Numbered from the stretch's first letter, positions 35,930 through 62,780 are shown. The stretch is DNA of 64,000 bases from an uncultured Clostridia bacterium (GCA_947628005.1 CANQYI010000001.1:193110-257109); one strand, 5' to 3'. Notes: generated by a model not told the origin, from the sequence alone. Program-made: numbers and translations.

Positions 35930-36012
35930 CATATCACCTCTCATTTATTTTATATGAAAAGGCGATATATGTCAAATATTAAATAACAATAAAAGGGCAA
36001 TTTTACTTGCCC

Positions 36013-36261
36013 TTAACTTGATTTCTTTAAATAGTATGTAGAAACTGTTTTCTTTATTGCTTCTTCTAATTTTTCATCATAATCATCTGCACTAACTATT
36101 ATATCAATAGATTTTCCCTGTTTATCTTTAATATTAATAATTTTATAATACAATTTTCTTTCCGTTCTATAAGAAAATATTTGAAACACAGTAATTAATA
36201 TTCCCGTAACTGCAATTAATAATATTAATATCTCACCAAATAGTTGTTGCATAATCATCAC
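36013..36261 (-). CDS. small membrane protein (one N-terminal TM), unknown function
   Basis: ORF with a TM helix ILILLIAVTGILITVF. Confidence 0.4.
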   Translation of the reverse strand: MMIMQQLFGEILILLIAVTGILITVFQIFSYRTERKLYYKIINIKDKQGKSIDIIVSADDYDEKLEEAIKKTVSTYYLKKSS

Positions 36262-36286
36262 CTATTAATATTATATTAACTTCACT

Positions 36287-37537
36287 TTACTTTGTTAATT
36301 CTGAAACTGTTTTTCCACATAGATCTGACTTATTATATTCATCCGGTTCAAGTCCAAGTCTTGTTTTCATGAATACTAAAACTACTGACATTAAGACACA
36401 CATTATTGCACCTGATAAAATACATGTAAACGTAGTTCCTATATTATCAACTATCATACCACTTATAAATAATAATATTGATTTACCAAGGCCTTCAAAA
36501 ATATAAAATATCGCTAAAATTTTTCCCCTTACACTTGATGTAGTAAAATTGTTTAAGTATTTTTTAATAGAAATTCTATATATTCCCTGTGATAAATTAA
36601 GTATGCATAATATTATAATTGATAGTAGTAATTTAGTGCCTATACTTTCTATACCATAATTTAAGATACCTACAATTAAAATTCCTAAAGTAAGACTAAG
36701 AGCAATTACTGTAAGCGTCTTTTTTTTAGTTGTTTTTTCTATTTTATCTTGAGTTCTTGAGCCTATACCAACACAAAGTGTAAAAGCAGACAAAATTATA
36801 GCATATATCGTTGGAGATACATCAAGTTCAACTATTACACTTTTTTGTAAAGTTTTTACAACCTCTATAAAGCCTGTTATAAAAAAGGCATATATAAAAA
36901 TTGAAATTAATCTTTGACTTTTTAAAACTTTTTTAAATTCTCTAAGATAAGATTTTAATCCAGAGTAGTCATCTTCTAAATTTACTTCTACATTTTCAAA
37001 TTGAGTTGACATTAAGAATGAAATTGTCAAACACGCTAATGTTAAAATGATTGGTATATAGTTATTAACTGTGAAGAAATATCCTATAAATAAAGAAGTA
37101 ATTCCTTCAAAGAAATAATATCTTGAAACTCCTTTTCCTTCTACCTTAGCATATTTAGATGTTGTTCCATTTTTCTTCAAAATTGCATATAGCCACTGAG
37201 TCTCTGTAAGTCCTTTTAAAGCAAATCCTAAAGCACAAAACATTTCTGCTATTGCTAAAAAAATAAATTTCTTTAAAAAGATGTAAATTACACAGTGTAC
37301 CATACAAAGTAAGTTTCCTATTACCATCGATTTCTTTATTCCAATGCTTTCAACTAAATAATTTGATGGTATCTGAAATATTGCAAAAAACACGGCATAT
37401 ATGGAACATAAATACATATATTCGCCTACAGACATGCCTTTCGTAATAGTAACAAATAGAAACATTATTGTGCTATAAAATAAATAATCATAACCAAACA
37501 TTCTATATGTTTTATAAAATTTTTCTCTGTTTAGCAT
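36287..37537 (-). CDS. MFS transporter
   Basis: About 12 predicted TM helices in two halves. No substrate assignable. Confidence 0.65.
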   Translation of the reverse strand: MLNREKFYKTYRMFGYDYLFYSTIMFLFVTITKGMSVGEYMYLCSIYAVFFAIFQIPSNYLVESIGIKKSMVIGNLLCMVHCVIYIFLKKFIFLAIAEMFCALGFALKGLTETQWLYAILKKNGTTSKYAKVEGKGVSRYYFFEGITSLFIGYFFTVNNYIPIILTLACLTISFLMSTQFENVEVNLEDDYSGLKSYLREFKKVLKSQRLISIFIYAFFITGFIEVVKTLQKSVIVELDVSPTIYAIILSAFTLCVGIGSRTQDKIEKTTKKKTLTVIALSLTLGILIVGILNYGIESIGTKLLLSIIILCILNLSQGIYRISIKKYLNNFTTSSVRGKILAIFYIFEGLGKSILLFISGMIVDNIGTTFTCILSGAIMCVLMSVVLVFMKTRLGLEPDEYNKSDLCGKTVSELTK

Positions 37538-37624
37538 ACGTTCACCTTAAGCTAATTATATATTATATTTATTTTTAAATCAACTATTTATCAGTTTAAA
37601 ATAAATAAAGCAGCTAAAGCTGCT

Positions 37625-38089
37625 TTATTTCTCTATAATTTTAATTATAACCTTTCCTAAGGCCATACTAACTATGCTTTCAATTTCTAACACTTTATTA
37701 GTATTATTTTTAAATATAAAATCTAATTCATTCCAAGAAATTGCTGCTTCGTCATCCCTTTTAGCGTAATACACTGGAATAGAATGTGGATGTACTTCAA
37801 CTATTTCTAGACCAATCTTTTTTATGGCCATATATAAAGTTGTAGAAACTTGACAAATTCCTCCTCCCACAGTTTCCACAATTTTTTTATTATCAATTGA
37901 TTCTGCCTCTTTATAACCTTTTTCTTTCGTCCTTTCACCAACTATTTCATTAAATGAAAAAGTTTCTCCTGGATGTAGCACTACTCCATTTATTGCATTT
38001 GAAGCAAGTTTTATATTATTATTTCTTGCAAAATCAAATCTATTAAAATTAGTAGTAGCTCTTGAGATAATATTACTAAATTTACTCAC
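37625..38089 (-). CDS. VanW-domain protein (short, core domain only)
   Basis: …GVVLHPGETFSFNEIVGERTKEKGYKEA…GGGICQVSTTLYMAIKKIGLEIVEVHPHS… matches the VanW core. Lacks the usual N-terminal extension. Confidence 0.6.
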   Translation of the reverse strand: MSKFSNIISRATTNFNRFDFARNNNIKLASNAINGVVLHPGETFSFNEIVGERTKEKGYKEAESIDNKKIVETVGGGICQVSTTLYMAIKKIGLEIVEVHPHSIPVYYAKRDDEAAISWNELDFIFKNNTNKVLEIESIVSMALGKVIIKIIEK

Positions 38090-38186
38090 CTCCTAATTTT
38101 TATTCTATACTATATTATATTAATCTACTAAATAAATAATACTAAGAAAAAATAGTGATCATTTTACTAACCACTATTTTTAATAT

Positions 38187-38471
38187 TCATTGTTCATTTG
38201 GTAAATAAATTAGTTCACCTTCTGTACCTTTTTTAGCAGACTCCCAAGAAATACGAGTAAAAGGACAAGTTTCTTCATTTTCATCTATTGAAATGTATAC
38301 TGTATAACCTTTTTTTATAAGTTTTTTAGCAATTTTTTCATCAATTTTATACTGTTCTAATCTTAAAGTTTCGCATTCATAAATAGAAGAAATTAAGATT
38401 AACTGCATTATGGTGCTATATATGTCTTTTGCCTGCCGACTAGATAATTCCTTTACTTTGTAAGCTTTCAT
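38187..38471 (-). CDS. hypothetical small protein (94 aa)
   Basis: ORF only. No recognisable domain. Confidence 0.35.
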   Translation of the reverse strand: MKAYKVKELSSRQAKDIYSTIMQLILISSIYECETLRLEQYKIDEKIAKKLIKKGYTVYISIDENEETCPFTRISWESAKKGTEGELIYLPNEQ

Positions 38472-38576
38472 GATACAATTCCTCCTTGATATTTATTTTA
38501 GAGCTTACCTAAATTACTTAAATTATCTAGATTATAACATACATTTAACTAATTATCAATACTAAACTAAGCAAAT

Positions 38577-40451
38577 TTATTCAAGTTCAAAAGCTCCAGT
38601 ATACAATCTATAATATTGACCTTTATTTTTTATCAAATCTTCATGTGTACCACGTTCTATAATTTTACCATGATCTAGAACCATAATAGCTTTTGCATTT
38701 CTTACGGTAGATAATCTATGTGCTATAACAAATACAGTTCTTCCTTCCATAAGTTTATCCATTCCGTCTTGTACTATTTTTTCTGTTCGAGTATCAATGC
38801 TAGAAGTAGCCTCATCAAGTATCATTACTGGTGGATTAGAAAGTGCACATCTTGCTATAGCTAGAAGTTGCCTTTGTCCCTGAGAAAGACTTGCTCCATC
38901 TCCAGATATTTGTGTATCATACCCATTTGGAAGTCTCTTTATGAAATTATGTGCATTAGCAAGTTTCGCAGCTTCTATTACTTCCTCATCTGTTGCATCA
39001 TCTTTTCCATACTTTATATTTTCTTTAATTGTACCTGTAAATAGATTTGTGTCCTGCAAAACCATTCCAAGAGACAGCCTTAAATCATCTTTTCTAATTT
39101 TATTTATATTTATTCCGTCATATCTTATTTTACCATCTTCTATATCATAAAAACGATTTATTAAATTTGTAATGGTTGTCTTTCCTGCACCAGTTGCACC
39201 AACAAATGCAATCTTTTGTCCAGGCTTTGCATACAAAGAAATATTGTGAAGTACATTTTTACCTTCTTCATATGCAAAATCTACATCATCAAACTCAATA
39301 TTTCCCTCTAATTTTATATATTCTACTCTGCCATCAGAATGCTTATGTTTCCATGCCCATTTATTTGTTTCTTCCTGTACTTCTACAAGTTTTCCATCTT
39401 CTTCTTTTACATTTACTAAAATTACATATCCATTATCTTTTTCAGGCTCTTCATCCATGAATTCAAATATTCTCTTTGCTCCTGCTACTGCCATAACAAC
39501 TGCATTTAACTGTCTAGATATTTGATTTATTGGCCTTATAAACGTTTTACTAAGCTGTAAAAATGCTACAATCATTCCTACACTAACATTTCCAATACCA
39601 TTTATTGCAAGGAGTCCACCAACCATTGCTACTATTGCATAAAGTGTATTTCCAAGATTTCCATTAACAGGGCCTATTGAATTTACAAATTTATTTGCAT
39701 GATACATATTTTTAGATAGTTCTTCGTTTAATTTATCAAATTTTTCTTTTGCTCTTTCCTCATAGCAAAAAACTTTTACTACTTTTTGGCCATTTATCAT
39801 TTCTTCAATGTATCCATTAAGTTTACCAACAGATTCTTGTTGTTTTACAAAATATTTTCCACTGTTTGAGGTCATAAATTTGGTAACTACAAGTATTATT
39901 ACAAGAAATGCCAATACAACAAGGGTTAAATATATATTTGTAAGTAGCATAGCAATAAATATAACTACAATTGTTGTTACAACTGAAAACAATTGAGGTA
40001 TTGTCTGAGAAATCATTTGACTTAAAGCATCTGTATCATTTGTATACCTACTCATAATATCTCCATGAGAATGAGTATCAAAATATTTTATTGGCAATCT
40101 TTGCATTTTACAAAACATTTCATCACGTATTTTCTTTAATGTGCCTTCTGTAACTTTTACCATAAGTCTACTAGATAAAAATTCTGCTATAGTTGCGACT
40201 AAATATATTGAGCCCATTGTAAGTATTGCTTTTATAAGTCCAGTATAAACTGGGTTTTTATTTCCTACAAGTGGAATAATGTAATCATCTATTAAAGTTT
40301 GTAAATAAAGATTTGCTCCAACAGATGCAATTGTACTCATTAAGAGACAAAAAATAACAAAAAATATTCTTAACTTATAATTTTTAGTAAGATATTTCAT
40401 TACACGTGCTAGTACTTTAAAATCTATTTTTGCCTTCTTGTGCTTTTCCAT
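38577..40451 (-). CDS. ABC transporter permease/ATP-binding protein (type I exporter half-transporter, subunit B)
   Basis: Six-TM N-terminal domain plus a C-terminal NBD (GATGAGKTT, LSQGQRQLLAIARC, ILDEATSSID). Confidence 0.85.
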   Translation of the reverse strand: MEKHKKAKIDFKVLARVMKYLTKNYKLRIFFVIFCLLMSTIASVGANLYLQTLIDDYIIPLVGNKNPVYTGLIKAILTMGSIYLVATIAEFLSSRLMVKVTEGTLKKIRDEMFCKMQRLPIKYFDTHSHGDIMSRYTNDTDALSQMISQTIPQLFSVVTTIVVIFIAMLLTNIYLTLVVLAFLVIILVVTKFMTSNSGKYFVKQQESVGKLNGYIEEMINGQKVVKVFCYEERAKEKFDKLNEELSKNMYHANKFVNSIGPVNGNLGNTLYAIVAMVGGLLAINGIGNVSVGMIVAFLQLSKTFIRPINQISRQLNAVVMAVAGAKRIFEFMDEEPEKDNGYVILVNVKEEDGKLVEVQEETNKWAWKHKHSDGRVEYIKLEGNIEFDDVDFAYEEGKNVLHNISLYAKPGQKIAFVGATGAGKTTITNLINRFYDIEDGKIRYDGININKIRKDDLRLSLGMVLQDTNLFTGTIKENIKYGKDDATDEEVIEAAKLANAHNFIKRLPNGYDTQISGDGASLSQGQRQLLAIARCALSNPPVMILDEATSSIDTRTEKIVQDGMDKLMEGRTVFVIAHRLSTVRNAKAIMVLDHGKIIERGTHEDLIKNKGQYYRLYTGAFELE

Positions 40452-42178
40452 TATTCTTTGCCTCCTTTCACTTGTGACTCATACACATCTCTATATATTT
40501 CATTATTTTTCAATAATTCTTCATGCGTTCCTATACCATCAATTTTACCATTATCCATAACAACTATTTTATCTGCATCCTGTACAGAAGAAATTCTTTG
40601 TGCAATTATAATTTTTGTAGTATCTGGTATACTTTCAGCGAAGGCTTTTCTAATAAGGCTATCTGTTTTTGTATCTACTGCACTTGTAGAATCGTCCAAA
40701 ATTAAAATTTTAGGTTTTTTAAGTAAAGCTCTCGCTATACAAAGTCTTTGCTTTTGACCTCCAGATACATTAGTTCCTCCCTGTTCAATGAAGGTATCAT
40801 ATCCGTCTTGAAAATCTCTTATAAATTCATCTGCTTGTGCTAATTTACATGCCTGTATCATTTCTTCATCTGTTGCATTTTCATTTCCCCAACGCAAATT
40901 TTCTTTTATAGTTCCAGAGAATAATTCATTTTTTTGAAGTACCATAGATACTTGATCTCTTAAAGATTTAATATCATAATCTCTAACATCAATACCACCA
41001 ACTTTTACGCTTCCGCTTGTTACATCATAAAGTCTTGGTATAAGTTGAACTATTGTTGACTTTGAAGATCCTGTTCCACCAATAATTCCTATCGTTTGAC
41101 CTGATTTTATACTTAAATTTATATCTTTTAGACATAATTTATTTTCGTCATTTACATAGCTAAAATTAACATTATCAAATTCAATTGAGCCATCTTTTAC
41201 ATCTTTTATAGCATTTTTCTTACTTACTAAATCACTCTTTTCATCCATTAATTCTACTATTCTTTCGCCTGATGCCCTAGAAATCATAATTGTAACTAAT
41301 ACCATTGATAACATCATTAAGGACATTAAAATTTGTATAGTATAAGAAATTAAACTTGTAAATTCTCCTGTTGTTAAATTTCCTAAAACTATTTCCTTTC
41401 CACCAAACCAAGAAATTAACACTATTATAGTTGCAACAGTAAATTGCATAAGTGGGTTATTTAGTGCAACTATTCTTTCTGCCTTAGAAAATTCTTTGTA
41501 AATTTTTTCTGAGGTTTCATTAAACTTTTCTATTTCTTTTTCTTCAGTTACAAAAGACTTTACAACTCTTATTCCTCTGACATTTTCCTCTACTGTATTA
41601 TTTAATTTATCATATATTTTTATTGCTCTTTCAAATATTGGATGTGCTTTCGTAGCTATAAGATATAATCCAAGTCCTAAAAGTGGCACTGCAACTAAGA
41701 ATATTAATGCAAGTTTTATATTAATTACAAATGCCATAATAAGAGAAAATATTATCATAAGTGGAGCTCTTACAGCCATTCTTATTATCATCTGAAAAGC
41801 AAGCTGAACATTATTTATATCTGTTGTATGCCTTGTTACTATACTTGATGTTGAAAATTTATCTATATTTGAAAAAGAAAAATCTTGTACATTATAATAA
41901 ATTCTCTTTCTTAAATTTTTAGCAAATCCACTTGTAGCTTTTGCAGCATAATCTCCTGATTTTACTCCAGTAAATATAGCTAAAAATGAACATATTACAA
42001 GTAAAATTCCAAATATGATAATTATTTTGCTATTAGATGCATTTATTCCATAATCAATTAAATATGCCATAAGAAATGGAATAATTACATCAAATGAGCA
42101 TTCTATTCCAACAAAAATTGGAGTCAGTATAGTCTCTTTTTTATACTTTCCAATACAACTAGCTAACTTTTTTATCAT
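40451..42178 (-). CDS. ABC transporter permease/ATP-binding protein (type I exporter half-transporter, subunit A)
   Basis: TMD plus NBD (GGTGSSKST, VSGGQKQRLCIARA, ILDDSTSAVD). Start overlaps the partner gene's stop by 1 nt, consistent with a heterodimeric exporter. Confidence 0.85.
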   Translation of the reverse strand: MIKKLASCIGKYKKETILTPIFVGIECSFDVIIPFLMAYLIDYGINASNSKIIIIFGILLVICSFLAIFTGVKSGDYAAKATSGFAKNLRKRIYYNVQDFSFSNIDKFSTSSIVTRHTTDINNVQLAFQMIIRMAVRAPLMIIFSLIMAFVINIKLALIFLVAVPLLGLGLYLIATKAHPIFERAIKIYDKLNNTVEENVRGIRVVKSFVTEEKEIEKFNETSEKIYKEFSKAERIVALNNPLMQFTVATIIVLISWFGGKEIVLGNLTTGEFTSLISYTIQILMSLMMLSMVLVTIMISRASGERIVELMDEKSDLVSKKNAIKDVKDGSIEFDNVNFSYVNDENKLCLKDINLSIKSGQTIGIIGGTGSSKSTIVQLIPRLYDVTSGSVKVGGIDVRDYDIKSLRDQVSMVLQKNELFSGTIKENLRWGNENATDEEMIQACKLAQADEFIRDFQDGYDTFIEQGGTNVSGGQKQRLCIARALLKKPKILILDDSTSAVDTKTDSLIRKAFAESIPDTTKIIIAQRISSVQDADKIVVMDNGKIDGIGTHEELLKNNEIYRDVYESQVKGGKE

Positions 42179-42328
42179 TGTTACCTCCCAAATGTTATTA
42201 GTGTTTTAAGCATTGTAAATTATACCATAAATTTATATTGTTATCAATAAATCAATTTTACTATTACCTTTTAGTAAAGTAAAATATAGAGATTAGCTTT
42301 AATTTCTAATCTCTATATCTTATAAATT

Positions 42329-45300
42329 TTATATATTTTTCTTTTTATATATAATCATTGATGCGGCCATAGCTATAATACATACAATCATAATTATAAT
42401 ATAATTTAATATATTATCTCCCGTATTTGGATTTTGAATATTTTGGTCTTCATCAACTTTATTATCTTCAGCATTAGATATTTCCTTATATACAGGTTTT
42501 ACCGTTAAATTTTCAAATATCTGAGTTTCTAGTGTAAGTTTTTCATCAGTATCCACAATTTCAAAATCTGAAAATTCTTTTTCACCTTTAAATTTATTTT
42601 TTATTTCTTCTAATTTTTCTTTTTCCTCTGAAGACAAATCATTTAAAGTTTTTCCTTCTTCCACAGTTAATGTCTGCTCTCCGTCCTCTGTTACTACTGT
42701 AATTACGACATTATATTTTGGAGTAAGTATAATATTTTCATTAAGTATTGTATAAAAATCTACTTCATTTCCAAGTTCATCAACAAATTTTTCCGCAAAC
42801 ACTTTATTTTCAGCACTTACAAAAGAATTTAAAGTATCCATTTGGTCTTCTGTAAGTCTATGTAATACAAAATCTTCTGGAACATCAAAAGATACTGTAG
42901 TCTCATCTAATTTTTTTATAGTTACATTAATATTATATTTTGGTATAATTACTATATTTTCAGTTAAAACTTTTTCCTCTGAAATATCTTGATTTTCTTC
43001 ATCTACGTATCTATCAAATTGTTTATTTTTTACTCCACTTTCGAATTGCTCTAACTTATTAGCCATACCTTTTAAAGTTGAGCCTTCTTCTACCTTTATA
43101 TCTTCGTAAGTTCCGTCATCTTTTTGAACTTTTACATGTATATCATATTTTGGTATTATTGTTACATGTTCACTAAAAGTACTTGCTACATCTATTAAAT
43201 TACCGTCTAAATCATAATAGCCTTTAAAATCTTTATTTGTTTTTTCTTCAAATTGTTGTCTTAATGTTTCTTCTAAAGCAGATAAACTTGAGCCTTCTAG
43301 CATCTCTAATTCAACTTGACTATCATATTGTGGTTTAACTGTTACAGTTATTTTATATACAGGTGTTAAAGTTGTTCTCTTTGCTATAGAAGTTGTAAAA
43401 TCTACTTTATTTCCTTCACTATCAATAAAATAAGCTAAATCCTTATTATCTTTTTTTACTAAATCTTTAATTTCATTTTGTGTTGATTCATCTAAAGAAT
43501 TTAGGTTTTCTCCTTCATTTAAAATGTAATTTTCAGTCTTATTTGTACCATTTATTGTTACAGTAATAGTTTGATTATATATTGGTATAAATTGAGTACT
43601 CTCATTTATTGGTTCATCATAATCTACTATTTTACCATTATCATTTATAAAATGTTCAAAATTTACACTTTCAGTAATAAACTCTTCTATTTGATTTATT
43701 ACATCTGCGCCTAAACTTCTTAAAGTTTGACCTTCTTTTAAAGTAAATTTCTTCTCTGTTTTATCAAGTTTTACAACTGTTACTACGACATTATATTTTG
43801 GAGTAAGTTCAGTATTTTCAAATATTTTTGTAGAATAATCTACAATTTCATTTTCTGAATTTTCAAATTCATTTCTGAAAACTTTTTTGTCAACACTAAC
43901 TTCTGACTCTAATTTTTCTTTTTGACTAGAAGATAAGTCATTTAAAGTTTTGCCCTCTTCTAATTCAAATGTCTCTTTTCCAACTTTTACACTTACATTA
44001 TAAATAGGAGTTATTTCAATATCTTCATTTACAACTGTATTTTTAGTTATGTTTTCGTCTTCATTATTAACATTTACAAATTTTGCAAATGTTTTATTAG
44101 TAACTTTTTCATATTTTGCTAAAGATTCAGATAAATCTGCTAAAAAGCTACCATTTTCTAATTCAAATTCTTCACTACTTTCATTGTAAGTAACCTTTAC
44201 TTTTACAGTATATTTAGGTATTATTGTAGTTTCTTCAATTATTATTGTATCATCTTTTACATCAGATCCATTTTGATCTACAAATCTTATGAATCTATCA
44301 TTCTTTCTAATATTATCAATTACTTCTTTAAGTGATGGATCTTTACTTAATGCATCAGAAAAAGAAATTCCTTTAATTACCTCATAACATGTATCATTAA
44401 CATATAGATTTACTTTCTCTTTTGATACTGGGTATAAGTCCATATTTTGAGTTACTGTTTCTTTAGTGTCAAATTCTAATGTATCACCAGCAATCTTTTC
44501 AAACCATGAATAGTCATCATCTTGTGTTTCTGGAAGTTCTTCAATTCCATCAACTAATCCGCCTTTATCATATACTTTTATTGTACAATTTCCATCTTTA
44601 TCAAAAATTCCAATTACTGCATAATTGCTGTTTACATTATATTTTGATTCAATAGTATTTGGATTTACTTTAACGCTACTTTCTAAATATATCAAATTAT
44701 TATTATCTTCTCTGTTATTTGCTCCAAAATTGAATATACTACTTCCAGTTCCGCCAAAGTAATCATCTATAGTTGTGTTCCCTGTAATTCTTATATTAGT
44801 ATTATTACTTACACTTTCTCCATCAAATGAAATTAAATATGTAGGCTCTTCACCTTTTGAATCGTTACCTTCAATTGTACAATTATCTATAGTTAATTTT
44901 AAATTGTTTTGTCTAATTATTGATATTGCTTCATCTTCAAAGAAATATGATGAACGTCCTTCTATAGTTGTACCATTACATAGATTAAGTTCATTGTTGC
45001 TACCGTTTGCTAGTCTAATTGCCATTGTACATAAAATTTTGGAATTATCAAAAGTTAATTTATTATTTGATGACTCTACATTTATACCATCATAAAGTGA
45101 GCAAAAAGTTGTATTTTTAGCATTTACAACTGTTCCATCTGCACCCTTTTGTATATTTAATGATGTTGTTTCATGAGTTTGACTTAATGTTCTACCAATA
45201 TGAAAAATTTCTACATTATTGAAAGTTAAATTTACTGGTTTTTGTATATCGTAAAAAATATGTCCATCTTTTGGCTGTTGATTATCACTTGAAAATCCTT

Positions 45301-45841
45301 CTAAATATACATCATTTTTAGTTTCATCTTCATCTGTTATTATTATTTTAGGAGTAATGAAAGTTATATTTCTACCTTTTCCAATAATAGATATGCTCTT
45401 ATTAATAATTATATCGCTACCACCGTAGTTTCCTTTTTCTAGTATAAGTTTACTTCCTGGCTGAGCATTTAATATTGCTTGATTCAAAGTATTTACTCCT
45501 GGTTTAACTGTTATTTCCTGAGGTAGGCTTTGAATTTCTGCTATAGGTAAAACTTCTTGTTCTAAATTATTGATATTTAAAACTTTATCTTGCTCAATAA
45601 TAATGTTATTATTATTTTCTGATAAAGTTTCACTTTCTACATTATTTTCACTAATTTCATCAGTTTCATCAATTTCAACAGTTTCATCAGTTTCTTTTAT
45701 AACATCTTCATTTTGTTCTACTTTCTCTAAATTGTCTTCCTTCACTTCAATTATTTGTTCTGTTGCAAGGCATATATCAGGTGTTAAAAACGAAATAATC
45801 ATCAAGACAGCAAAGAATACTTTAGTTAATTTTTGTAACTT
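42329..45841 (-). CDS. large cell-wall-anchored surface protein: signal peptide, beta-helix-like N-terminal domain, about 9 tandem ~70-aa repeats, NPNTG sorting signal
   Basis: Start taken at MKLQKLTKVFFAVLMIISFL. Repeats carry the motif (T/I)P(K/I)Y(N/T)V.V.V…E.G.(T/S)L. C-terminus NPNTGD followed by a hydrophobic TM and KKKNI, a cell-wall sorting signal layout. Confidence 0.7.
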   Translation of the reverse strand, partial: KLQKLTKVFFAVLMIISFLTPDICLATEQIIEVKEDNLEKVEQNEDVIKETDETVEIDETDEISENNVESETLSENNNNIIIEQDKVLNINNLEQEVLPIAEIQSLPQEITVKPGVNTLNQAILNAQPGSKLILEKGNYGGSDIIINKSISIIGKGRNITFITPKIIITDEDETKNDVYLEGFSSDNQQPKDGHIFYDIQKPVNLTFNNVEIFHIGRTLSQTHETTSLNIQKGADGTVVNAKNTTFCSLYDGINVESSNNKLTFDNSKILCTMAIRLANGSNNELNLCNGTTIEGRSSYFFEDEAISIIRQNNLKLTIDNCTIEGNDSKGEEPTYLISFDGESVSNNTNIRITGNTTIDDYFGGTGSSIFNFGANNREDNNNLIYLESSVKVNPNTIESKYNVNSNYAVIGIFDKDGNCTIKVYDKGGLVDGIEELPETQDDDYSWFEKIAGDTLEFDTKETVTQNMDLYPVSKEKVNLYVNDTCYEVIKGISFSDALSKDPSLKEVIDNIRKNDRFIRFVDQNGSDVKDDTIIIEETTIIPKYTVKVKVTYNESSEEFELENGSFLADLSESLAKYEKVTNKTFAKFVNVNNEDENITKNTVVNEDIEITPIYNVSVKVGKETFELEEGKTLNDLSSSQKEKLESEVSVDKKVFRNEFENSENEIVDYSTKIFENTELTPKYNVVVTVVKLDKTEKKFTLKEGQTLRSLGADVINQIEEFITESVNFEHFINDNGKIVDYDEPINESTQFIPIYNQTITVTINGTNKTENYILNEGENLNSLDESTQNEIKDLVKKDNKDLAYFIDSEGNKVDFTTSIAKRTTLTPVYKITVTVKPQYDSQVELEMLEGSSLSALEETLRQQFEEKTNKDFKGYYDLDGNLIDVASTFSEHVTIIPKYDIHVKVQKDDGTYEDIKVEEGSTLKGMANKLEQFESGVKNKQFDRYVDEENQDISEEKVLTENIVIIPKYNINVTIKKLDETTVSFDVPEDFVLHRLTEDQMDTLNSFVSAENKVFAEKFVDELGNEVDFYTILNENIILTPKYNVVITVVTEDGEQTLTVEEGKTLNDLSSEEKEKLEEIKNKFKGEKEFSDFEIVDTDEKLTLETQIFENLTVKPVYKEISNAEDNKVDEDQNIQNPNTGDNILNYIIIMIVCIIAMAASMIIYKKKNI

Positions 45842-46023
45842 CATAAAAATCCTCCTTAAACTTGTAATAATTATACCATCCATTTAGAAATATTTCAATC
45901 AAATTTCGACATTTTTATCATTACATAGCAGGTAATTTTTGCCTAAATATTCAAATATTGCCTTTTTTTAATTTTTATGCTATATTTTAACAAAACGTAC
46001 TAAAAATTTTTGGAGGATTTTTT

Positions 46024-47640
46024 ATGTTAGAAAAAATTAAAAAAAATAAGATTATAATTATATCTTTTTTAATAATATATTTGGGTGTGTTTATCATATG
46101 TAAATATAATATGTTTGCACAAGATGAATATAATTATAGCCATATTGCTTGGACTAACCAAAAATTAAGTTCATTTAGTGATATTATAAAATCCCAAGCT
46201 GAAATATATAAAAATTGGAGTGGTAGAATACCTGTACTTGGCATGGTTCAAGTATTTTTATATATTGGAAAAACTTTTTATGATTTTATAAATCCATTAG
46301 TATTTATACTATTCATTGTACTAGTTATTAAAGCAGCAAATGTAAAAATAGATATTAAAAATGTATTTTTTGTATTATTATTTTCAGTCTTTGGGGCATA
46401 CAAATTTTGGGAAAAATATATTTGGATATCAGGAAGTTTAAATTATCTTTGGCCTGTTACTCTTATGTTATTTGTAATATATTATTTTTACAATATTATA
46501 ATTAATGACAAAAAGTTAAATGCTTTCTCTACAATTACTTTATTTGTAATATCTTTTTTTGCTGGATGGTCACATGAAAACGTAGCCTTTGTACTTGGTT
46601 CATTTATTATATTCATTTGTCTATTTAATATTAAAAAAATATTATCTTTAAACACTGGTACAAAAATAAAATTAACAACTTCAATTTTGTTATTTGGTAT
46701 TGGTGCTATATTACTGATATTTTGTCCTGGAAATTTTGGAAGAATGGGCAATACAGAAAGAAATATTACACTACTTCCTATTTTAAAAAATATCTTGGCA
46801 CTATATAAAATAATAATACTATATATAGCTACTATCATAATATTAACTAAATCTAAAAAAATAAAGCAAAATTATGACGTAAGTTCTATATTAAAAGAAC
46901 AAGTTAGATACTTTATTTTCCCTATATTAGTTGCTTTGTTACCTATGATAATTATTGCAGAATTTCCTGTAAGAGCTGCATTAGCATACGAAGTTATATT
47001 ATTTATATTAATACTTAAAAATTTAGATATAATATTTAAATCTATGCAAAATAAAAAAATAGAAAAATATATTTCTATAGTTGTAGTTTTTTTATCTATC
47101 TTCATGTTATACTCTAAATCATTATTTGCAATAACATGTTTAAAACCATATAAAGAAAAAATTGATGAGCAAATTATGCAAGAAAAATCGTCTGGAAAAA
47201 CTGATATACTAATATCTCAATTTGAGAATTTAAATTTAGCAAAATTATTAGGCGTGTACATGGACATTTTTCCAAAATCAACAGATTCATCAATTATTAA
47301 TTCATATATGTCTACTTATTATGGCGTAAATTCTATAACAGCTATAACAGACGGATATGCACAAATAGAAATAAGCCTAAAAAATGAAGCTGAAATTATA
47401 GATTATAATTTAGTAGATAAAACAACAGGTAATATTATCACTAGCAGAATAACTAAAGTAGAATTGCCTATGCCACAGACTAGTCTTAATAAAAGAATTA
47501 TTTTTAATGTACCTGTAGAAGATTTAAATAATGCATATGTAGATTTACCAGATAATGTAAAACAAGATATAATAGAAATAAAAATTAAAACATTAAATGA
47601 TATATCAGATTATAACGAATATGATTTAATTAAAAAGTAG
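46024..47640 (+). CDS. polytopic membrane protein (about 12 TM), possibly a GT-C-like glycosyltransferase (DUF6056-like)
   Basis: Early loop motif AQDEYNYSHIAW…NWSGRIP after the first TM, then many TM helices. Family assignment is from memory and unverified. Confidence 0.45.
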   Translation: MLEKIKKNKIIIISFLIIYLGVFIICKYNMFAQDEYNYSHIAWTNQKLSSFSDIIKSQAEIYKNWSGRIPVLGMVQVFLYIGKTFYDFINPLVFILFIVLVIKAANVKIDIKNVFFVLLFSVFGAYKFWEKYIWISGSLNYLWPVTLMLFVIYYFYNIIINDKKLNAFSTITLFVISFFAGWSHENVAFVLGSFIIFICLFNIKKILSLNTGTKIKLTTSILLFGIGAILLIFCPGNFGRMGNTERNITLLPILKNILALYKIIILYIATIIILTKSKKIKQNYDVSSILKEQVRYFIFPILVALLPMIIIAEFPVRAALAYEVILFILILKNLDIIFKSMQNKKIEKYISIVVVFLSIFMLYSKSLFAITCLKPYKEKIDEQIMQEKSSGKTDILISQFENLNLAKLLGVYMDIFPKSTDSSIINSYMSTYYGVNSITAITDGYAQIEISLKNEAEIIDYNLVDKTTGNIITSRITKVELPMPQTSLNKRIIFNVPVEDLNNAYVDLPDNVKQDIIEIKIKTLNDISDYNEYDLIKK

Positions 47641-47667
47641 CAAAAAAGCTAGGGCAACCTAGCTTTT

Positions 47668-48453
47668 TTATCTTGTATTTTTTATTATTTGTTCCTTTTC
47701 ATTAATTAAGGTATTACAATTTTCATAATCTTCGCCGATTAAAAATTTATTATAATCAATTATTTTTAAATATTTGTACTTTGGCTCAATTATTTCTTTT
47801 TTTAAGTTTAAGTCGTATACTCCATATAAGCCATTATTTTGTACTTTAGCTTGATAAATATAATCTGGATATATATCACAATATTTCGTTTTAATCATTA
47901 ATTGTAAATCGGGAGATGCCTGTATATATTCGTATTTAAAGGGAACAATAACGTTATTATCTTTATCTAAAACTCCATTTTTTTCTTTTTTGCTATCAAA
48001 TACTCTAAAATATGTTCCCGTGTTATCCATTTCTTCCATAAACAAATATTTAATAGGTATTATTACCTTTCCCTTTTTATTTATTAGTCCATGCTTTAAA
48101 GTTATTATTATTTCTTTATCTCCTATTTTTCTAGATTCATATGGCAACATCACTTGATAATTATCACCACACTCCATAAATGGGTAAATATATTGTGGTT
48201 CTACTATAATATTACCGTCTTTATCTACCAGTCCCCAGTTCCCTTCTAGTCCATATACTCCATCTATTGCTGTATGTGCGCCCCAATAATCAACTTCACT
48301 TACTTCATCTTGATTCTTAGTACTTACGGCATAATTACCATCACTTAATTCATAAACTTGTTTATATTTCTTTTTTAATTCTTCTACAACCATAATTATT
48401 CCTCCTACATAAATATAACATATAAATATAAAAAGGAAAAATCCTGTGGTCAC
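47668..48453 (-). CDS. WG-repeat (KWG) containing protein
   Basis: Repeated …G(L/N)WG(L/V)(V/I)DKDGN…EP.Y… units typical of WG-containing repeats. Confidence 0.5.
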   Translation of the reverse strand: MTTGFFLFIFICYIYVGGIIMVVEELKKKYKQVYELSDGNYAVSTKNQDEVSEVDYWGAHTAIDGVYGLEGNWGLVDKDGNIIVEPQYIYPFMECGDNYQVMLPYESRKIGDKEIIITLKHGLINKKGKVIIPIKYLFMEEMDNTGTYFRVFDSKKEKNGVLDKDNNVIVPFKYEYIQASPDLQLMIKTKYCDIYPDYIYQAKVQNNGLYGVYDLNLKKEIIEPKYKYLKIIDYNKFLIGEDYENCNTLINEKEQIIKNTR

Positions 48454-57519: not shown

Positions 57520-58880
57520 AACAAAAGTGAATCAAAGATTCACTCCACTACAAAAATGTAGTGTTCTTTATAAAGAGTATGGTAGTCTTTAAGTTTTATA
57601 CTTTTAGGCTACTCTTTTCTTTATTGGTCGTTGTTCTCGACCATTATCCATCGCAATTTCTTGGTTTGGAATATAATTATTTATATATTTTCTTAATATA
57701 TTTAAACTTCCGTTTATATCCGCATTTATTTCTTTTCCGGCGTTTGTTATAAATAATCCTCTATATTTTCTTCTTTTTTTATTATAATTTTCTTTATTTA
57801 CTTCTTCTCTATCTATTGCACTTACTCCTGATGTATATCTTTCACTTATCTTTACTACTTCTATTCCTTCTATTTTTGCTTTGTATTCTATCTTTTTAAC
57901 TAACTGTTCTAATGGTATCTGCACGAAATCCTTGTTATAGTTCATATTTTGTTTTATATTTTTTAAATCTCCTATCACTATTTTTGAACATTTATTTTTT
58001 ATTGCATATTCTATTACCATCCTTGATACCTTATGCATAAATGTATTCATATAATCATTACGCTTTTTCCTTAATCTTTTTATTTGCTTTGTATCTTTAT
58101 ACTTTTTATTTCCTACCATTTTCATTTTTATTTGTTGTAAGTTCTTTACTTTTTCATTTATATATTTATTCTTACTTTTGGCTTCCTTTCCTGATACAAG
58201 CAACATATCCATATTTTCCTTATTTGTACATGCTACAATATTATTTATCCCTAAGTCTATTGCCATTATATTTCCTGCTTTACTTGTTTCCTTTTCTTCT
58301 TTTTCATATACTATATTCATTTCTATTTCTTTTCCTTTATTTTTTATCTTTATCATTTTTATGTCTGAAACTAATATTTGCTTTTTTAATTTTCTTGGTA
58401 TTAAAAAATTTAAACTTTCTACTCTATTATTTTCTTGCATTTTCTTTGATATTGATAATTTTATTTTATTTCCTTCTATTCTTACTGCATATTTAGTAAA
58501 TACTATCTCTTGTTCTTGCTTTTCTTTTTTGTATCTTGTATATTTTGGTTCTCCTTTTAATGTGCTTTTATCTTTTTCATATTTTTTCTTTAATGCTATG
58601 TATGATTTATAACTTCCTAATACACTAAGTATAGCCTCTTGTAACATATGTGAATGCAAATACTTGCTATGCCAGTTTTCTTGTCTATACTTTCTATATA
58701 TTGGGGTTGCTATTATATTTATACTTTTTGTAACATCAATTTTTTCTTTTCCCTCTTTTATATCATACAATAACATATTCATTACTTTCTTTGTATGCCA
58801 CTCTAATTCATTAATTATTCTTAATTGTTCTTCACTTGGTTTTTTTATAGAATATTTTAAACTTAGTTTCATTTTTTCCC
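57520..58880 (-). mobile_element. IS200/IS605-family element remnant (tnpB only, no tnpA), with two perfect 7-bp hairpins at the 3' (right) end
   Basis: Hairpins GTGAATC-aaa-GATTCAC (57527-57543) and CACTACA-aaaa-TGTAGTG (57546-57563) lie 40-80 nt downstream of the tnpB stop. Element boundaries are approximate. Confidence 0.45.
57604..58872 (-). CDS. TnpB-like protein (IS200/IS605 OrfB family) with apparent loss of the RuvC-II Glu and of the zinc-finger cysteines
   Basis: RuvC-I MAIDLGINN and RuvC-III NADINGSLNI are present. The expected hhhEDL motif reads KIVIGDL. The CxxC…CxxC positions read TSGVSAIDRE and GLFITNAGKEI, with no Cys in the C-terminal 120 aa. Confidence 0.65.
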   Translation of the reverse strand: MKLSLKYSIKKPSEEQLRIINELEWHTKKVMNMLLYDIKEGKEKIDVTKSINIIATPIYRKYRQENWHSKYLHSHMLQEAILSVLGSYKSYIALKKKYEKDKSTLKGEPKYTRYKKEKQEQEIVFTKYAVRIEGNKIKLSISKKMQENNRVESLNFLIPRKLKKQILVSDIKMIKIKNKGKEIEMNIVYEKEEKETSKAGNIMAIDLGINNIVACTNKENMDMLLVSGKEAKSKNKYINEKVKNLQQIKMKMVGNKKYKDTKQIKRLRKKRNDYMNTFMHKVSRMVIEYAIKNKCSKIVIGDLKNIKQNMNYNKDFVQIPLEQLVKKIEYKAKIEGIEVVKISERYTSGVSAIDREEVNKENYNKKRRKYRGLFITNAGKEINADINGSLNILRKYINNYIPNQEIAMDNGREQRPIKKRVA

Positions 58881-60519: not shown

Positions 60520-61152
60520 TTAAATTTCTTTTTTAAAGTAAATCCTTTCTGATATTTTATATGATATATATAACATTAAAATCATAGCTATTAAAAACAC
60601 AACTATCCAATATGCTTCTATAAGATTTAATATGTTAATTATTGCTGAAAAATCAACATACTGTATTATAAATCCTCCTATAACAGCAACACCAAAAATT
60701 ATAGCCATTAACCAAATTCTTGCTTTTTCTGGTCCAAATTTATACATTGTTGGATAAATAAATGATTGTAATAAAATTGTAGCAAAAAGAGAGCCAAATA
60801 TTGTTCCTGTAATGTTTTCAAAATCTATTATTTTTGTTTTAACATAAGAAATTGTAAAAGATAATATAGTAATAATTATAGTTGTTACAATTATAAGTAT
60901 TATAGTTGCTAAGTATTTGGCTTTTACACTATTTTTTCTACCACCTGGTAAAGATATTGCATACGCATCCCATTTATTGTAAGAATCGTAACTAAATGTT
61001 GACATCATAACCATTACACTCATAAATGGTAATAAAAATGATAAATCCATTTGACCTTGAAAAGCCATGACTACATATATAATTAATAAAATTGCAAAAA
61101 TTTTAATATTACTTTTTATCATTAATAAATCTTTTTTTATAAAACCTAACAT
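60520..61152 (-). CDS. ABC-2 type transporter permease
   Basis: 6-TM small permease. Start overlaps the ATPase gene's stop. Confidence 0.6.
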   Translation of the reverse strand: MLGFIKKDLLMIKSNIKIFAILLIIYVVMAFQGQMDLSFLLPFMSVMVMMSTFSYDSYNKWDAYAISLPGGRKNSVKAKYLATIILIIVTTIIITILSFTISYVKTKIIDFENITGTIFGSLFATILLQSFIYPTMYKFGPEKARIWLMAIIFGVAVIGGFIIQYVDFSAIINILNLIEAYWIVVFLIAMILMLYISYKISERIYFKKEI

Positions 61153-62009
61153 TACTTTTCCCCCTTAATCATTAATACCATAAGCTCTTCAAGTGTTATT
61201 TTATCTATTGTATCTATGTTGTATTTTTTACTGAAAACTTTTCTGTTTTCAATTAAAATTTCATATTCGTATTTACTTTTCTTATATTGAACAAAATCTT
61301 TCTTATCTATCTTTTCAAACTCTTCTTTTGAACATTTAACAATACCATAATCTTCTAGTAATTCTTCTCTAGTTTTTGATAGTATAATTTTTCCATTGTT
61401 TATGAAAGTAATATAATCTGCAATATGTTCTAAATCTGTTGTAATATGACTTGATAGAAAAATAGAACATTCTTCATTTTGAATAAAGCTTTGAAAAAGG
61501 TCTATTACTTCGTTTCTTGCTACTGGATCAAGTCCAGCTGTTGGCTCATCAAGAATTAATAATTGCGGATGATGTGAGATTGCTGTTGCTATTTCCAATT
61601 TTTTTCTCATTCCTTTAGACAATGTTTTTATTGCTTTATTTCTTGGTAATGAAAAATCAGTTAAATATTTTAAATATAACTTTGAATCCCAATTTTTATA
61701 AATGTCTTTCATAATGCTATTTATATCATTTGGAGTTAAAATTTCTGGGAAAAACATATCATCTAGGACAACTCCGACATTTTCTTTAATTTTTTTATCA
61801 TCCTTTTTATTGTCAAGGCCAAATATTTTTATTTCACCTGTATAATTTTTAATAATATCTAAAATTGCCTTAATTGTAGTCGTTTTTCCTGCCCCATTTT
61901 CTCCAATAAAGCCCATAATCATCCCTTTAGGCAATGTGATATTAACATTTTGCAATTCAAATCCTTTATATTTTTTGCATAGATTTTTAACTTCTAATAT
62001 ATTTTCCAT
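61152..62009 (-). CDS. ABC transporter ATP-binding protein
   Basis: GENGAGKTT, LSKGMRKKLEIA, ILDEPTAGLD. Confidence 0.85.
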   Translation of the reverse strand: MENILEVKNLCKKYKGFELQNVNITLPKGMIMGFIGENGAGKTTTIKAILDIIKNYTGEIKIFGLDNKKDDKKIKENVGVVLDDMFFPEILTPNDINSIMKDIYKNWDSKLYLKYLTDFSLPRNKAIKTLSKGMRKKLEIATAISHHPQLLILDEPTAGLDPVARNEVIDLFQSFIQNEECSIFLSSHITTDLEHIADYITFINNGKIILSKTREELLEDYGIVKCSKEEFEKIDKKDFVQYKKSKYEYEILIENRKVFSKKYNIDTIDKITLEELMVLMIKGEK

Positions 62010-62390
62010 TTATTCATCCTCCCCAAATAAATATTCAAATGTTTCTAAAATTTCTTTTTTACTTATATTAGATGTTTTCGATATTAAAACAATTTTATCA
62101 ATATATTTTTCAATCTCCTTCATCTGCTCTTCTTTTAAAAGCTCAATATTTTTTGCTGCAACTAAACTTCCTTTACCGTGAATTGTCTTAATAAAACCTT
62201 CCTGTTCTAATTCATCATAAGCTCTTTTTACTGTCATAACACTAATTCTTAAATCTTGTGCTAAATTTCTAATTGATGGCAAAATTTCATTTTCTTTCAA
62301 TTCATTTGTTGCTATTGCTTTTTTTATAGCTTGTTTAATTTGTTCAAAAATAGGCTGATTACTACTATTGCTAATAATAATATCCATAAT
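62010..62390 (-). CDS. GntR-family transcriptional regulator (short YtrA-like)
   Basis: …ILPSIRNLAQDLRISVMTVKRAYDELEQEGFI… GntR HTH. Start taken at MIMDII. Confidence 0.75.
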   Translation of the reverse strand: MMDIIISNSSNQPIFEQIKQAIKKAIATNELKENEILPSIRNLAQDLRISVMTVKRAYDELEQEGFIKTIHGKGSLVAAKNIELLKEEQMKEIEKYIDKIVLISKTSNISKKEILETFEYLFGEDE

Positions 62391-62780
62391 CATTTCTCCT
62401 TTTTTTACAACTGTTATATCTATATTATAACAGTTGTAACAGTTTGTCAATACTTTTATAAAAAAATAAAAGATTATCTTTTTTTGATAACCTTTTAACT
62501 GAAAGTCATATAAATTGTAATTTAGCTAATAGTATGTGCTGTTATAATTGTATAGCTATATGAGTTAATAGTTATTATTATATTTTAAATCTCACAATAC
62601 CAATTCTTTTCTTGTTTAAATATATTACAATTTTTTCTAAAACTTTATTTTTACAATATTCTACTACATCATTTGTATCTAATTTTAGATTTTTTTAATT
62701 CTATCAATACCCATTTCAGTAGTATGAATTTTATCAATATTTGATAATAATATTTCTTTATTCATATAATTTAAACCTCT

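Follow-up and report, generated by a model that had tools for sequence, protein, structure and literature searches.

A stalked, putatively sortase-anchored surface protein and a GtrC-type glycosyltransferase are probably chance neighbours in an uncultured Clostridia bacterium

Two cell-envelope genes of an uncultured Clostridia bacterium lie back to back with 179 bp between them, one encoding a long repeat-containing surface protein and the other a membrane protein of the DUF6056 family. A sequence-only reading of the 64-kb stretch of DNA analysed here (the window) proposed that they form a dedicated glycosylation and anchoring pair for an adhesin. Do these genes work together, or did they meet by chance? 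Having compared domain architecture, folds, family memberships, gene neighbourhoods and transcription-unit signals, we consider it likely that they are unrelated, a stalked sortase-anchored protein and a GtrC-type glycosyltransferase that have become divergent neighbours in a single species. Both open reading frames were found where the sequence-only reading had placed them, and their features are collected in table 1.

Table 1. Features of the divergent gene pair, in window coordinates.
Feature	Position	Strand	Basis or detail
Terminator-like hairpin, directly 3' of the surface-protein stop	42280..42322	-	17-bp stem, -18.3 kcal/mol, z-score -6.5
Surface-protein gene, 1171 aa	42329..45844	-	stop codon included; ATG at 45844
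C-terminal hydrophobic helix (residues 1144-1166) and basic tail KKKNI	42332..42415	-	hydrophobicity, sequence
NPNTG sorting motif, residues 1138-1142, then Asp1143	42419..42433	-	C-terminal sequence
Stalk, nine contiguous 69-75-aa ubiquitin-like (β-grasp) repeats, residues 472-1116	42497..44431	-	repeat HMM, model, Foldseek
Junction domain, Flg_new (Listeria-Bacteroides repeat) type, about residues 405-471	44432..44632	-	family junction domains match PF09479
Right-handed parallel β-helix head, about residues 110-404	44633..45517	-	family profile, AlphaFold model, Foldseek
Acidic disordered linker, residues 28-109	45518..45763	-	23% Glu, 13% Asn; pLDDT <50 at residues 1-106
Predicted Sec signal peptide, residues 1-27, MKLQKLTKVFFAVLMIISFLTPDICLA	45764..45844	-	hydrophobic peak at residues 6-29; predicted cleavage site
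Surface-protein promoter-like site, TTGAAA-17-TATAAT, TG-extended	45870..45898	-	11/12 matches; consensus match only
GtrC-type membrane glycosyltransferase, 538 aa, PF19528	46024..47640	+	Pfam, fold, family
Asp34 codon, first extracytoplasmic loop (AQDEYNYS), candidate catalytic residue	46123..46125	+	invariant in 36 homologues
Bidirectional terminator, common to the glycosyltransferase gene and a convergent WG-repeat gene	47642..47669	.	sequence signal

The mechanical open reading frame of the surface protein spans 1184 aa (42329..45883, minus strand) and reaches 13 codons upstream of the ATG at 45844. This ATG is almost certainly the true start, since an AAGGAGG ribosome-binding site lies 7 nt before it and the promoter-like site falls within the 13-codon extension. 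The resulting length of 1171 aa agrees with the earlier estimate of about 1,170, and database copies of the protein are annotated with the same length. The hairpin behind the gene is U-rich on its 3' side, and the next promoter-like site (42247..42219) belongs to ABC exporter genes. The DUF6056 gene likewise comes with a promoter-like site and a terminator hairpin of its own and, going by these signals, each of the two genes forms a transcription unit by itself.

From its N-terminus, the surface protein consists of a signal peptide, an acidic disordered linker, a β-helix head, a Flg_new-like domain, nine repeats and a C-terminal NPNTG-D motif, transmembrane helix and KKKNI tail. The signal peptide expected from the sequence-only reading appears as a single hydrophobic peak. 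The head opens with the cap motif VKPGvnTLnqAIlnAqPGskLiLekGnY. A search of 1.84 billion representative proteins yielded 42 full-length relatives, and a profile built from the family matched the PL6 alginate lyase AlyGC at E 1e-7. Foldseek comparison of the AlphaFold model of the head returned PL6 alginate lyases, chondroitinase B and the mannuronan epimerase AlgE4 as its best matches (E 2e-4 to 2e-3, probability 1.0). The β-helix character proposed for this region is thus borne out by both profile and model, while Pfam gave no lyase or Beta_helix match to the surface protein at E<=0.1. A fold shared with PL6 lyases and alginate epimerases makes polysaccharide binding the most likely function of the head, with polysaccharide cleavage as a possible alternative.

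Could the head be an active, surface-displayed lyase or epimerase, making the protein a wall-tethered enzyme that lets the cell feed on glycans of dietary or host origin? The structural matches, the AlyGC profile match and the source of the sequences, a herbivore gut community (rabbit metagenome-assembled genomes, MAGs), all point this way, and the head shares with AlyGC, chondroitinase B and AlgE4 both the right-handed parallel β-helix and the N-terminal cap motif. We nevertheless regard catalysis as unlikely. The sequence similarity to PL6 lyases spans just approximately 75 residues and is restricted to the N-terminal cap and first coils of the head. On the side of AlyGC, a chain of 726 residues, it covers residues 439-515, which lie in the non-catalytic C-terminal domain. 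PL6 lyases use a catalytic Lys and Arg and a Ca2+ site formed by Asn, Glu and Glu, all on the helix face, whereas the family-invariant columns of the head, judged by inspection, include one Glu in an EDEAISI segment and no Lys/Arg pair in the helix that would fit the PL6 base and acid. The lack of a Pfam lyase match also argues against an enzyme, and the head differs from PL6 lyases in being fused to a long stalk and wall anchor.

The stalk had been described as about nine tandem repeats of roughly 70 aa; a repeat HMM found exactly nine contiguous units, with domain E-values from 1e-21 to 6e-28. Their pairwise identity averages 28% (range 17-45%), and Tandem Repeats Finder did not detect them in the DNA. 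In the AlphaFold model each unit has a β-β-α-β-β arrangement (pLDDT about 80-90), and Foldseek matched the repeats to linear tetra-ubiquitin at E 3e-10. The sequence-only reading had suggested checking this region against the Flg_new family (PF09479). The surface protein itself has no Flg_new match at E<=0.1 in a Pfam HMM search, but 11 of the 14 aligned junction domains of its family match PF09479 (best E 3e-15), as do 13 of 33 wider family members. The characteristic GYxFxGW motif has been lost from the junction domain of the surface protein, which reads DDDYSWFEKI at that point. When 44 stalk repeats from the family were scanned at E<=10, PF09479 was absent among the 25 listed of 57 matching families. 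Comparison of the stalk-repeat and junction-domain profiles with hhalign gave a probability of 76.8% (E 2e-5, 62 aligned columns).

This plan of an N-terminal functional head, a tandem stalk of β-grasp units of approximately 70 aa and a C-terminal wall anchor is that of fibrillar adhesins with Flg_new or InlB B-repeat stalks, and the junction domain belongs to a set whose members match PF09479. Unlike those adhesins, the surface protein has nine repeats that lack both a Pfam Flg_new match and the GYxFxGW motif and are tied to the Flg_new-type junction domain at an hhalign probability of 77% only, and its head has no Pfam family.

We then turn to how the protein is held at the cell surface. The predicted C-terminal ending of NPNTGD, a hydrophobic helix and KKKNI can be read directly from the sequence as QNPNTGD, 23 hydrophobic residues (NILNYIIIMIVCIIAMAASMIIY) and KKKNI. 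Sortase B of Bacillus anthracis requires NPKTG together with an Asp at P2' (PMC11987632), and NPNTG plus Asp fits the class B motif N-P-x-T-G/N with an acidic P2' residue. Relatives carry NPNTS-D, NPKTS-D, SPKTA-D, IPKTS-D or APNTG. The wider family divides into an xPxTxD class and an (A/V/S)P(N/D)TG class, with the Asp conserved in the NPxTxD branch. Two curated sorting-signal models, NF033846 (Rumino_NPXTG, 17.7 bits against a cut-off of 23.5) and TIGR01167 (LPXTG_anchor, 14.6 against 15.9), were the top two relevant matches of the surface protein, both below threshold.

Gene neighbourhoods provide a second line of evidence. In five of eight homologue lineages (L012, L004/L005, L006, L084 and L090), a sortase gene is the immediate neighbour. 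The L012 sortase passes the class B model TIGR03064 (189 bits, cut-off 153.75), and the L006 sortase scores 108.5 bits, under the same cut-off; those of L084 and L090 are 60% identical to the L012 enzyme, while that of L004/L005 is split into two fragments. One further homologue (P0003, from MAG GCA_947623285.1) has no adjacent sortase, and a sortase that is 59% identical to that of L012 (P0057) is encoded on another contig of its genome. No sortase had been noticed in the window, in agreement with our tblastn searches using three relatives' sortases, which gave nothing better than E 1.4; the sortase candidates looked up outside the window were all from other species.

The association of sortase genes with homologues in five of eight lineages, together with the agreement of motif and Asp with sortase B signals, makes the reading of the surface protein as a class B sortase substrate well supported, and upholds the class B rather than LPxTG layout proposed for it from sequence alone. 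A class B sortase probably attaches the protein to the cell wall, and the protein would presumably depend on such an enzyme in the source genome. The surface protein shares with known class B substrates (B. anthracis IsdC with NPKTG-D, S. aureus IsdC with NPQTN, C. difficile proteins with (S/P)PxTG and the 'NPXTG-anchored protein' family of NCBIfam, NF033846) a three-part C-terminal signal, here Asn-Pro-x-Thr-Gly with Asp directly behind it, then a membrane helix and, last, a basic tail, and like them members of its family are encoded beside class B type sortase genes. In contrast to those substrates, the cargo is neither a pilin nor a NEAT protein that binds haem but a β-helix head on a β-grasp stalk, the final residue of the motif differs widely between family members (G, S, A, V, N, L, Y, F), the scores fall under curated HMM cut-offs and the cognate sortase was not found within the 64-kb window.

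An alternative is that no sortase cuts the surface protein in this organism, for example following loss of the cognate sortase gene, and that the C-terminal membrane helix keeps it tethered. The 64 kb around the gene lack a sortase, and the fragmented sortase of the close lineage L004/L005, where the substrate C-terminus is also damaged, shows that such systems decay. In L004 a conserved GntR-ABC operon is followed by a surface-protein gene and a sortase gene; behind the window's copy of this operon both are missing. Even so, this seems quite improbable: the sorting signal is intact in the conserved form of the family (NPxT-x-D, helix, basic tail), and P0003 also lacks an adjacent sortase, yet a sortase is encoded elsewhere in its MAG. 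With sortase anchoring as the preferred reading, the fibrillar protein would be exported by the Sec pathway and retained at the membrane by the NPNTG-D signal, the membrane helix and the KKKNI tail; cleavage after the Thr and linkage to peptidoglycan would fall to a class B sortase with its gene outside the window. Together, the single Flg_new-like domain and the nine ubiquitin-like repeats would make up a stalk, keeping the β-helix head off the wall.

The membrane neighbour had been considered similar to GT-C glycosyltransferases, with profile searches suggested to distinguish it from a transporter. It matches PF19528 (DUF6056, currently named GT_STM0557_N in Pfam) with 221.5 bits against a gathering threshold of 27 (E 2.4e-65) over model positions 3-441 of 442. 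STM0557 is GtrC of the Salmonella gtr cluster, which is tied to O12-2 glucosylation. Approximately 11-12 membrane helices, in line with the 12 expected, occupy residues 1-375 of the 538 and are followed by a β-rich C-terminal domain of about 150 aa that the sequence-only reading had missed. In Foldseek searches with a confident structure model (pLDDT 91.6, pTM 0.90), the top real matches were all GT-C enzymes (AftA, Pmt4, ArnT, AftB, EmbC and Pmt1/2), though these matches are weak (probability 0.5-0.96, E 0.07-1.1, TM-scores 0.25-0.44). The DE motif noticed in an early loop corresponds to AQDEYNYS, in which D34 and Y38 are invariant across 36 homologues; by analogy with the GT-C family, D34 is a candidate catalytic residue, presumably on the outer side of the membrane. 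Since Salmonella GtrC, an O-antigen glucosyltransferase, belongs to PF19528, the protein is, by family assignment, a GT-C type glycosyltransferase rather than a transporter.

The 57 DUF6056 loci analysed in other genomes lie in polysaccharide clusters (with Wzm/Wzt, GT2, GtrB and GtrA), in gtrABC, or between pyrK and pyrD, and at least 25 of them have a GtrB-like gene within 10 kb. Relatives from Clostridia cluster with Wzm, Wzt, several GT2 enzymes, a GtrB/PgfS-like GT2 and GtrA; GtrA and GtrB are encoded with DUF6056 in L021 and L065 among others, the latter a Kluyvera locus with the order gtrA, gtrB, DUF6056 homologue. The protein resembles Salmonella GtrC (STM0557) in its Pfam family, its many-helix membrane domain and the invariant Asp of its first outer loop, and, as in GtrABC and the three-component systems that glycosylate Gram-positive wall polymers, the genes of its relatives accompany those of GtrA and GtrB or lie within Wzm/Wzt clusters. 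In contrast to GtrABC, neither GtrA nor GtrB nor any other GT2 gene accompanies the DUF6056 gene anywhere in the 64-kb window, and unlike GtrC its product carries the extra C-terminal domain. It looks like a chance neighbour whose product decorates a wall polysaccharide, presumably its acceptor, rather than a dedicated partner of the surface protein. The donor would be made by a GtrB-like protein and flipped by a GtrA-like protein, both encoded elsewhere.

The proposed pairing is conserved in neither direction. None of the seven other lineages with a surface-protein homologue has a DUF6056 neighbour, the adjacency is restricted to one species, and no sortase, sortase substrate or surface-protein homologue was found within 10 kb of the 57 DUF6056 loci. 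The nearest relative in which DUF6056 has stayed at this chromosomal position, beside ruvA and ftsEX, is L015 (76% identity); it is missing all of the 10-kb segment that includes the surface-protein gene. Divergently arranged genes can share regulation, and a precedent for a wall-anchored adhesin as the target of a GT-C enzyme is the Pgf system of Streptococcus mutans (PgfS, PgfM1, PgfE and PgfM2, with adhesins Cnm and WapA), which also places a GT-C enzyme beside a sortase-anchored surface protein and is the sole known model that fits the pairing idea. Known GT-C systems for protein O-glycosylation in Firmicutes, Pgf included, use YfhO-family enzymes and poly-Ser/Thr disordered acceptor tracts, whereas the enzyme here belongs to PF19528, whose namesake acts on O-antigen. 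The surface protein has no Ser/Thr tract: its longest Ser/Thr run is three residues, its richest 20-aa stretch (8 Ser/Thr) lies inside the repeat array and its disordered linker is 11% Ser plus Thr. Nor, unlike Pgf, is the co-location of the two genes conserved. Despite the divergent arrangement over 179 bp and the conserved outer-loop Asp, we therefore find it very improbable, given also the separate promoter-like sites and terminators, that the DUF6056 enzyme O-glycosylates the adjacent protein outside the membrane as part of a dedicated adhesin and glycosylation module.

Since adjacency in one species can reflect recent functional capture, we retain a very small probability that a GtrC-family enzyme, a type so far tied only to the decoration of polysaccharides, glycosylates the folded β-helix/β-grasp surface protein encoded beside it. 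If true, protein glycosylation outside the cytoplasm would have a second route in Firmicutes, one that is independent of YfhO.

The large reverse-strand open reading frame is laid out as the sequence-only reading had described it (table). Its start was set at the ATG because of an AAGGAGG ribosome-binding site, a strong promoter-like site and the calls of database copies. The AlphaFold model of this surface protein has a mean pLDDT of 76.8, with folded parts at about 80−95. A Pfam search yielded no significant domain, and Pfam lacks models for both the head and the stalk repeat.

Features of the surface-protein region in the window, and homologues of the surface protein with adjacent sortases
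Feature	Position	Strand	Remarks
Surface-protein ORF	42329..45883	−	1171 aa from ATG at 45844
Promoter-like site, surface-protein gene	45898..45870	−	strong
Signal peptide and acidic segment	residues 1−106		disordered in AlphaFold model (pLDDT < 50)
Head	about residues 110−404		β-helix
Junction domain	residues 405−471		
Stalk	residues 472−1116		nine contiguous units by repeat HMM
C-terminal end			QNPNTGD, 23-residue hydrophobic helix, KKKNI
DUF6056 gene	46024..47640	+	538 aa
Bidirectional terminator hairpin	47642..47669		perfect; common to WG-repeat and DUF6056 genes
WG-repeat (PF14903) gene	47668..48453	−	converges on DUF6056 gene
ruvA−DUF6056 segment	about 35945..46023		10 kb
GntR-ABC operon	60520..62450	−	GntR regulator, ABC ATPase, ABC-2 permease
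IS605 OrfB/TnpB-like gene	57604..58872		
Homologue P0002	locus L012		57% identity; adjacent sortase
Homologue P0005	loci L004/L005		adjacent sortase in two fragments
Homologue P0006	locus L006		adjacent sortase
Newly found homologue	locus L084		1171 aa, ends GNPKTSD; adjacent sortase
Homologue	locus L090		1492 aa, ends LSPKTAD; adjacent sortase

The β-helix character suspected at the N-terminus was borne out. A profile built from the surface protein and five homologues matches AlyGC, an alginate lyase of family PL6, at the head's N-terminal cap (E 1e-7), the AlphaFold model shows many short strands, and Foldseek finds a resemblance to PL6 lyases and the AlgE4 epimerase; the head is therefore a right-handed parallel β-helix. 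The PL6 catalytic pair was not seen in the head on inspection of the family's invariant columns. The junction domain aligns with a domain bearing a GYxFxGW motif in wider family members, and 11 of 14 aligned junction domains match Pfam Flg_new (the Listeria-Bacteroides repeat); in the window's protein the motif is degraded to DDDYSWFEKI. The stalk repeats share a mean identity of 28% among themselves, too diverged to leave a repeat signal at the DNA level, so that Tandem Repeats Finder detected no array. Each repeat has the order β-β-α-β-β, the stalk matches linear tetra-ubiquitin (Foldseek, E 3e-10), and the repeats are, as modelled, β-grasp domains. Flg_new was absent among the 25 Pfam families listed for 44 family stalk repeats scanned, and comparison of the stalk-repeat and junction-domain profiles gave an hhalign probability of only 77%; we therefore call the repeats distant relatives of the Flg_new class rather than members of it. 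With a distal head carried on a stalk of small repeats, and a wall anchor, the surface protein follows the usual plan of fibrillar adhesins.

The proposal that this protein is a substrate of a class B type sortase is supported by its NPNTG-D signal and by the sortase genes that directly adjoin its homologues in five lineages. NPxTG-like motifs are the recognition signals of class B sortases, and in B. anthracis cleavage additionally requires an Asp two residues past the cut (PMC11987632); this Asp is conserved in the surface protein. The sortase of L012 passes the NCBI class B model, while that of L006 lies below the model's cut-off. A further homologue, P0003, has no adjacent sortase, but its MAG encodes one on a separate contig. 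Curated sorting-signal HMMs scored the surface protein just below their cut-offs, so for the window's copy we strongly infer, rather than demonstrate, anchoring by sortase B. Across the family, a loose xPxTxD signal provides the link to class B type sortases. The window itself lacks a sortase gene, as had been noted: tblastn with the relatives' sortases found none. When the enzyme of the window's genome was sought through homologues of the closest relative's adjacent sortase, the five candidates whose contigs were looked up (P0057, P0064, P0053, P0188 and P0153) all came from other MAGs or samples.

Among these, P0057 (L075 1..5791, MAG GCA_947623285.1) adjoins two very large genes, encoding a 973-aa protein without a Pfam match and a 1899-aa protein with DUF7601 and DUF5979, which may be further substrates of this sortase. 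Relatives show signs of decay: the sortase beside P0005 is split into pieces of 116 and 94 aa (L004 7312..8083), P0005, whose C-terminus is NPKTVDNILRLCKTCNTRNCMYYSF, lacks a regular helix and tail, and P0002 breaks off early within its final repeat and has no sorting signal. Pseudogenes or errors of assembly could account for this.

A word-indexed search of 5.8 billion proteins returned only six homologues of the surface protein. An exhaustive search with the head profile yielded 42 cluster representatives at E ≤ 1e-30, nearly all 900−2047 aa long with the head at the N-terminus. Stalk repeats number 3−19 in each member of at least 725 aa among the best 41 new matches examined. The C-termini fall into three groups: xPxTxD (for example NPKTGD, NPQTGD, NPKTSD, SPKTND and VPKTYD), (A/V/S)P(N/D)TG and, in a few members, wall-binding ChW repeats. 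In P0196, P0199 and P0200 the same β-helix head is found with ChW (clostridial hydrophobic W) repeats replacing the sortase signal; the family thus swaps covalent for non-covalent wall attachment. The homologues make up a small family of wall-anchored surface proteins from uncultured gut Clostridia, with about 40 clusters at 50% identity.

The divergently transcribed neighbour has about 11−12 membrane helices, close to the number first estimated, and a β-rich C-terminal domain of about 150 residues. It matches PF19528 (DUF6056, renamed GT_STM0557_N in newer Pfam releases) end to end, with an E-value of 2.4e-65. STM0557 is the GtrC protein encoded in a gtr cluster of Salmonella Typhimurium (STM0557-0559), and O12-2 O-antigen modification is attributed to this cluster (PMC2909390). 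A sequence search of the PDB with the DUF6056 profile found nothing; the best real fold matches of the structure model (pLDDT 91.6) are all GT-C enzymes, with weak E-values, and homologues keep D34, a residue of the first loop, without exception. The GT-C reading therefore stands, and that of a transporter fails. No GtrA, GtrB or GT2 gene is present in the window, so the transferase stands alone and its donor pathway must lie elsewhere. In a viral library, the best structural match was an uncharacterized protein of Oenococcus phage phiS13 (E 1e-7, TM-score 0.49−0.58), possibly a GtrC-like enzyme by which the phage converts the surface of its Gram-positive host.

The genomic context of the transferase was analysed in 57 loci from other genomes, taking up to 10 kb on each side of the DUF6056 gene. 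The gene usually lies in a co-directional operon. In about 10−11 of the 57 loci it is flanked by GT2 glycosyltransferases, in clusters with Wzm, Wzt, further GT2 genes, a GtrB/PgfS-like GT2 and GtrA; in a Kluyvera locus the order is gtrA, gtrB, DUF6056 homologue. The GtrC-type transferase probably belongs with wall-polysaccharide decoration. Fifteen loci (L031, L032, L035−L041, L043, L045, L047, L054, L055 and others, with the match near position 10001 in most) place the gene between pyrK (DHODB_Fe-S_bind) and pyrD (DHO_dh), co-directional and tightly spaced, mostly in Candidatus Scatovivens and related Clostridia MAGs. A position inside a pyrimidine biosynthesis operon is an odd but conserved one for a wall-glycosylation gene.

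The two genes had been suggested to form a dedicated pair for glycosylating and anchoring an adhesin. This is not supported, as their pairing is not conserved in either direction: the DUF6056 gene is absent near the surface-protein homologue in all seven other lineages, and none of the 57 DUF6056 loci contains a surface-protein homologue, a sortase or a protein with a sorting signal. Two candidate pairings were rejected: a 1634-aa gene in L016, divergent from a DUF6056 gene with 63% identity, has no signal peptide, anchor or similarity to the surface protein, and the 520-aa gene downstream of homologue P0004 does not encode a DUF6056 protein. The most informative locus is L015, the syntenic locus of the nearest relative, where the DUF6056 protein shares 76% identity with the one in the window. 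The genes upstream of it correspond, in the same order, to ruvA, ftsE, ftsX and the PcsB-like gene of the window, with just two small genes between ruvA and the DUF6056 gene. The interval in the window instead encodes an MFS transporter, a VanW-like protein, a 94-aa ORF, two ABC exporters and the surface protein, so it is lineage-specific gene content that has brought the two genes side by side; the G+C of the segment is not distinctive. Both genes come with a promoter-like site and a terminator hairpin of their own, and a shared operator is not convincingly present in the intergenic region, where the best inverted pair consists of the mirrored ribosome-binding sites of the two genes. Known GT-C glycosylation of wall-anchored adhesins in Firmicutes involves YfhO-family enzymes and disordered poly-Ser/Thr tracts (bioRxiv 10.1101/2024.05.05.592596), whereas the longest Ser/Thr run in the surface protein is three residues. 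We conclude that the surface-protein and DUF6056 genes are most likely not a pair.

The window is chromosomal, with a G+C of ~27% and carrying rpoB, rpoC, fusA and tuf as well as ruvA, ftsE, ftsX and the PcsB-like peptidase gene. Identical copies of both genes occur on contigs of ENA metagenome assemblies and Logan read-run assemblies. In the species-representative collection, which excludes the window's own species, the nearest genomes are uncultured Clostridia MAGs named ‘Lapin’ (rabbit), with Candidatus Scatovivens farther away. The GntR-ABC operon of the window is 92%, 92% and 80% identical, gene by gene, to an operon at L004 1281..3148. In L004 the next genes are those of the paralogous surface protein P0005 and the broken class B type sortase; in the window their place is taken by an HTH protein, a 186-aa ORF and the IS605 OrfB/TnpB-like gene, which suggests loss or rearrangement at this site. 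Two guesses proved wrong, namely that a second 400-aa ORF, at 19406..20608, is a duplicate EF-Tu and that the window's end is syntenic with the rplL region of L090.

The surface protein would be exported by Sec and its signal peptide cleaved, the C-terminal helix and basic tail keeping it in the membrane until a class B sortase would cleave between Thr1141 and Gly1142 and move it onto peptidoglycan. A ten-domain β-grasp stalk would then display the acidic linker and the β-helix head at its end. Glycan binding is the most likely role of the head, with lyase activity a possibility. The evidence supports two parts of the original interpretation, the GT-C enzyme and the substrate for a sortase of B type, but not the functional pairing: the surface protein is in all likelihood a sortase-anchored fibrillar protein of a known sort and its neighbour an ordinary GtrC-family transferase. 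The importance of these findings is modest. They caution that a single divergent gene pair is a poor guide to function. The surface-protein family extends the few known class B sortase substrates to cargo that is neither haem-related nor a pilin, and it could aid adhesin annotation in gut metagenomes.
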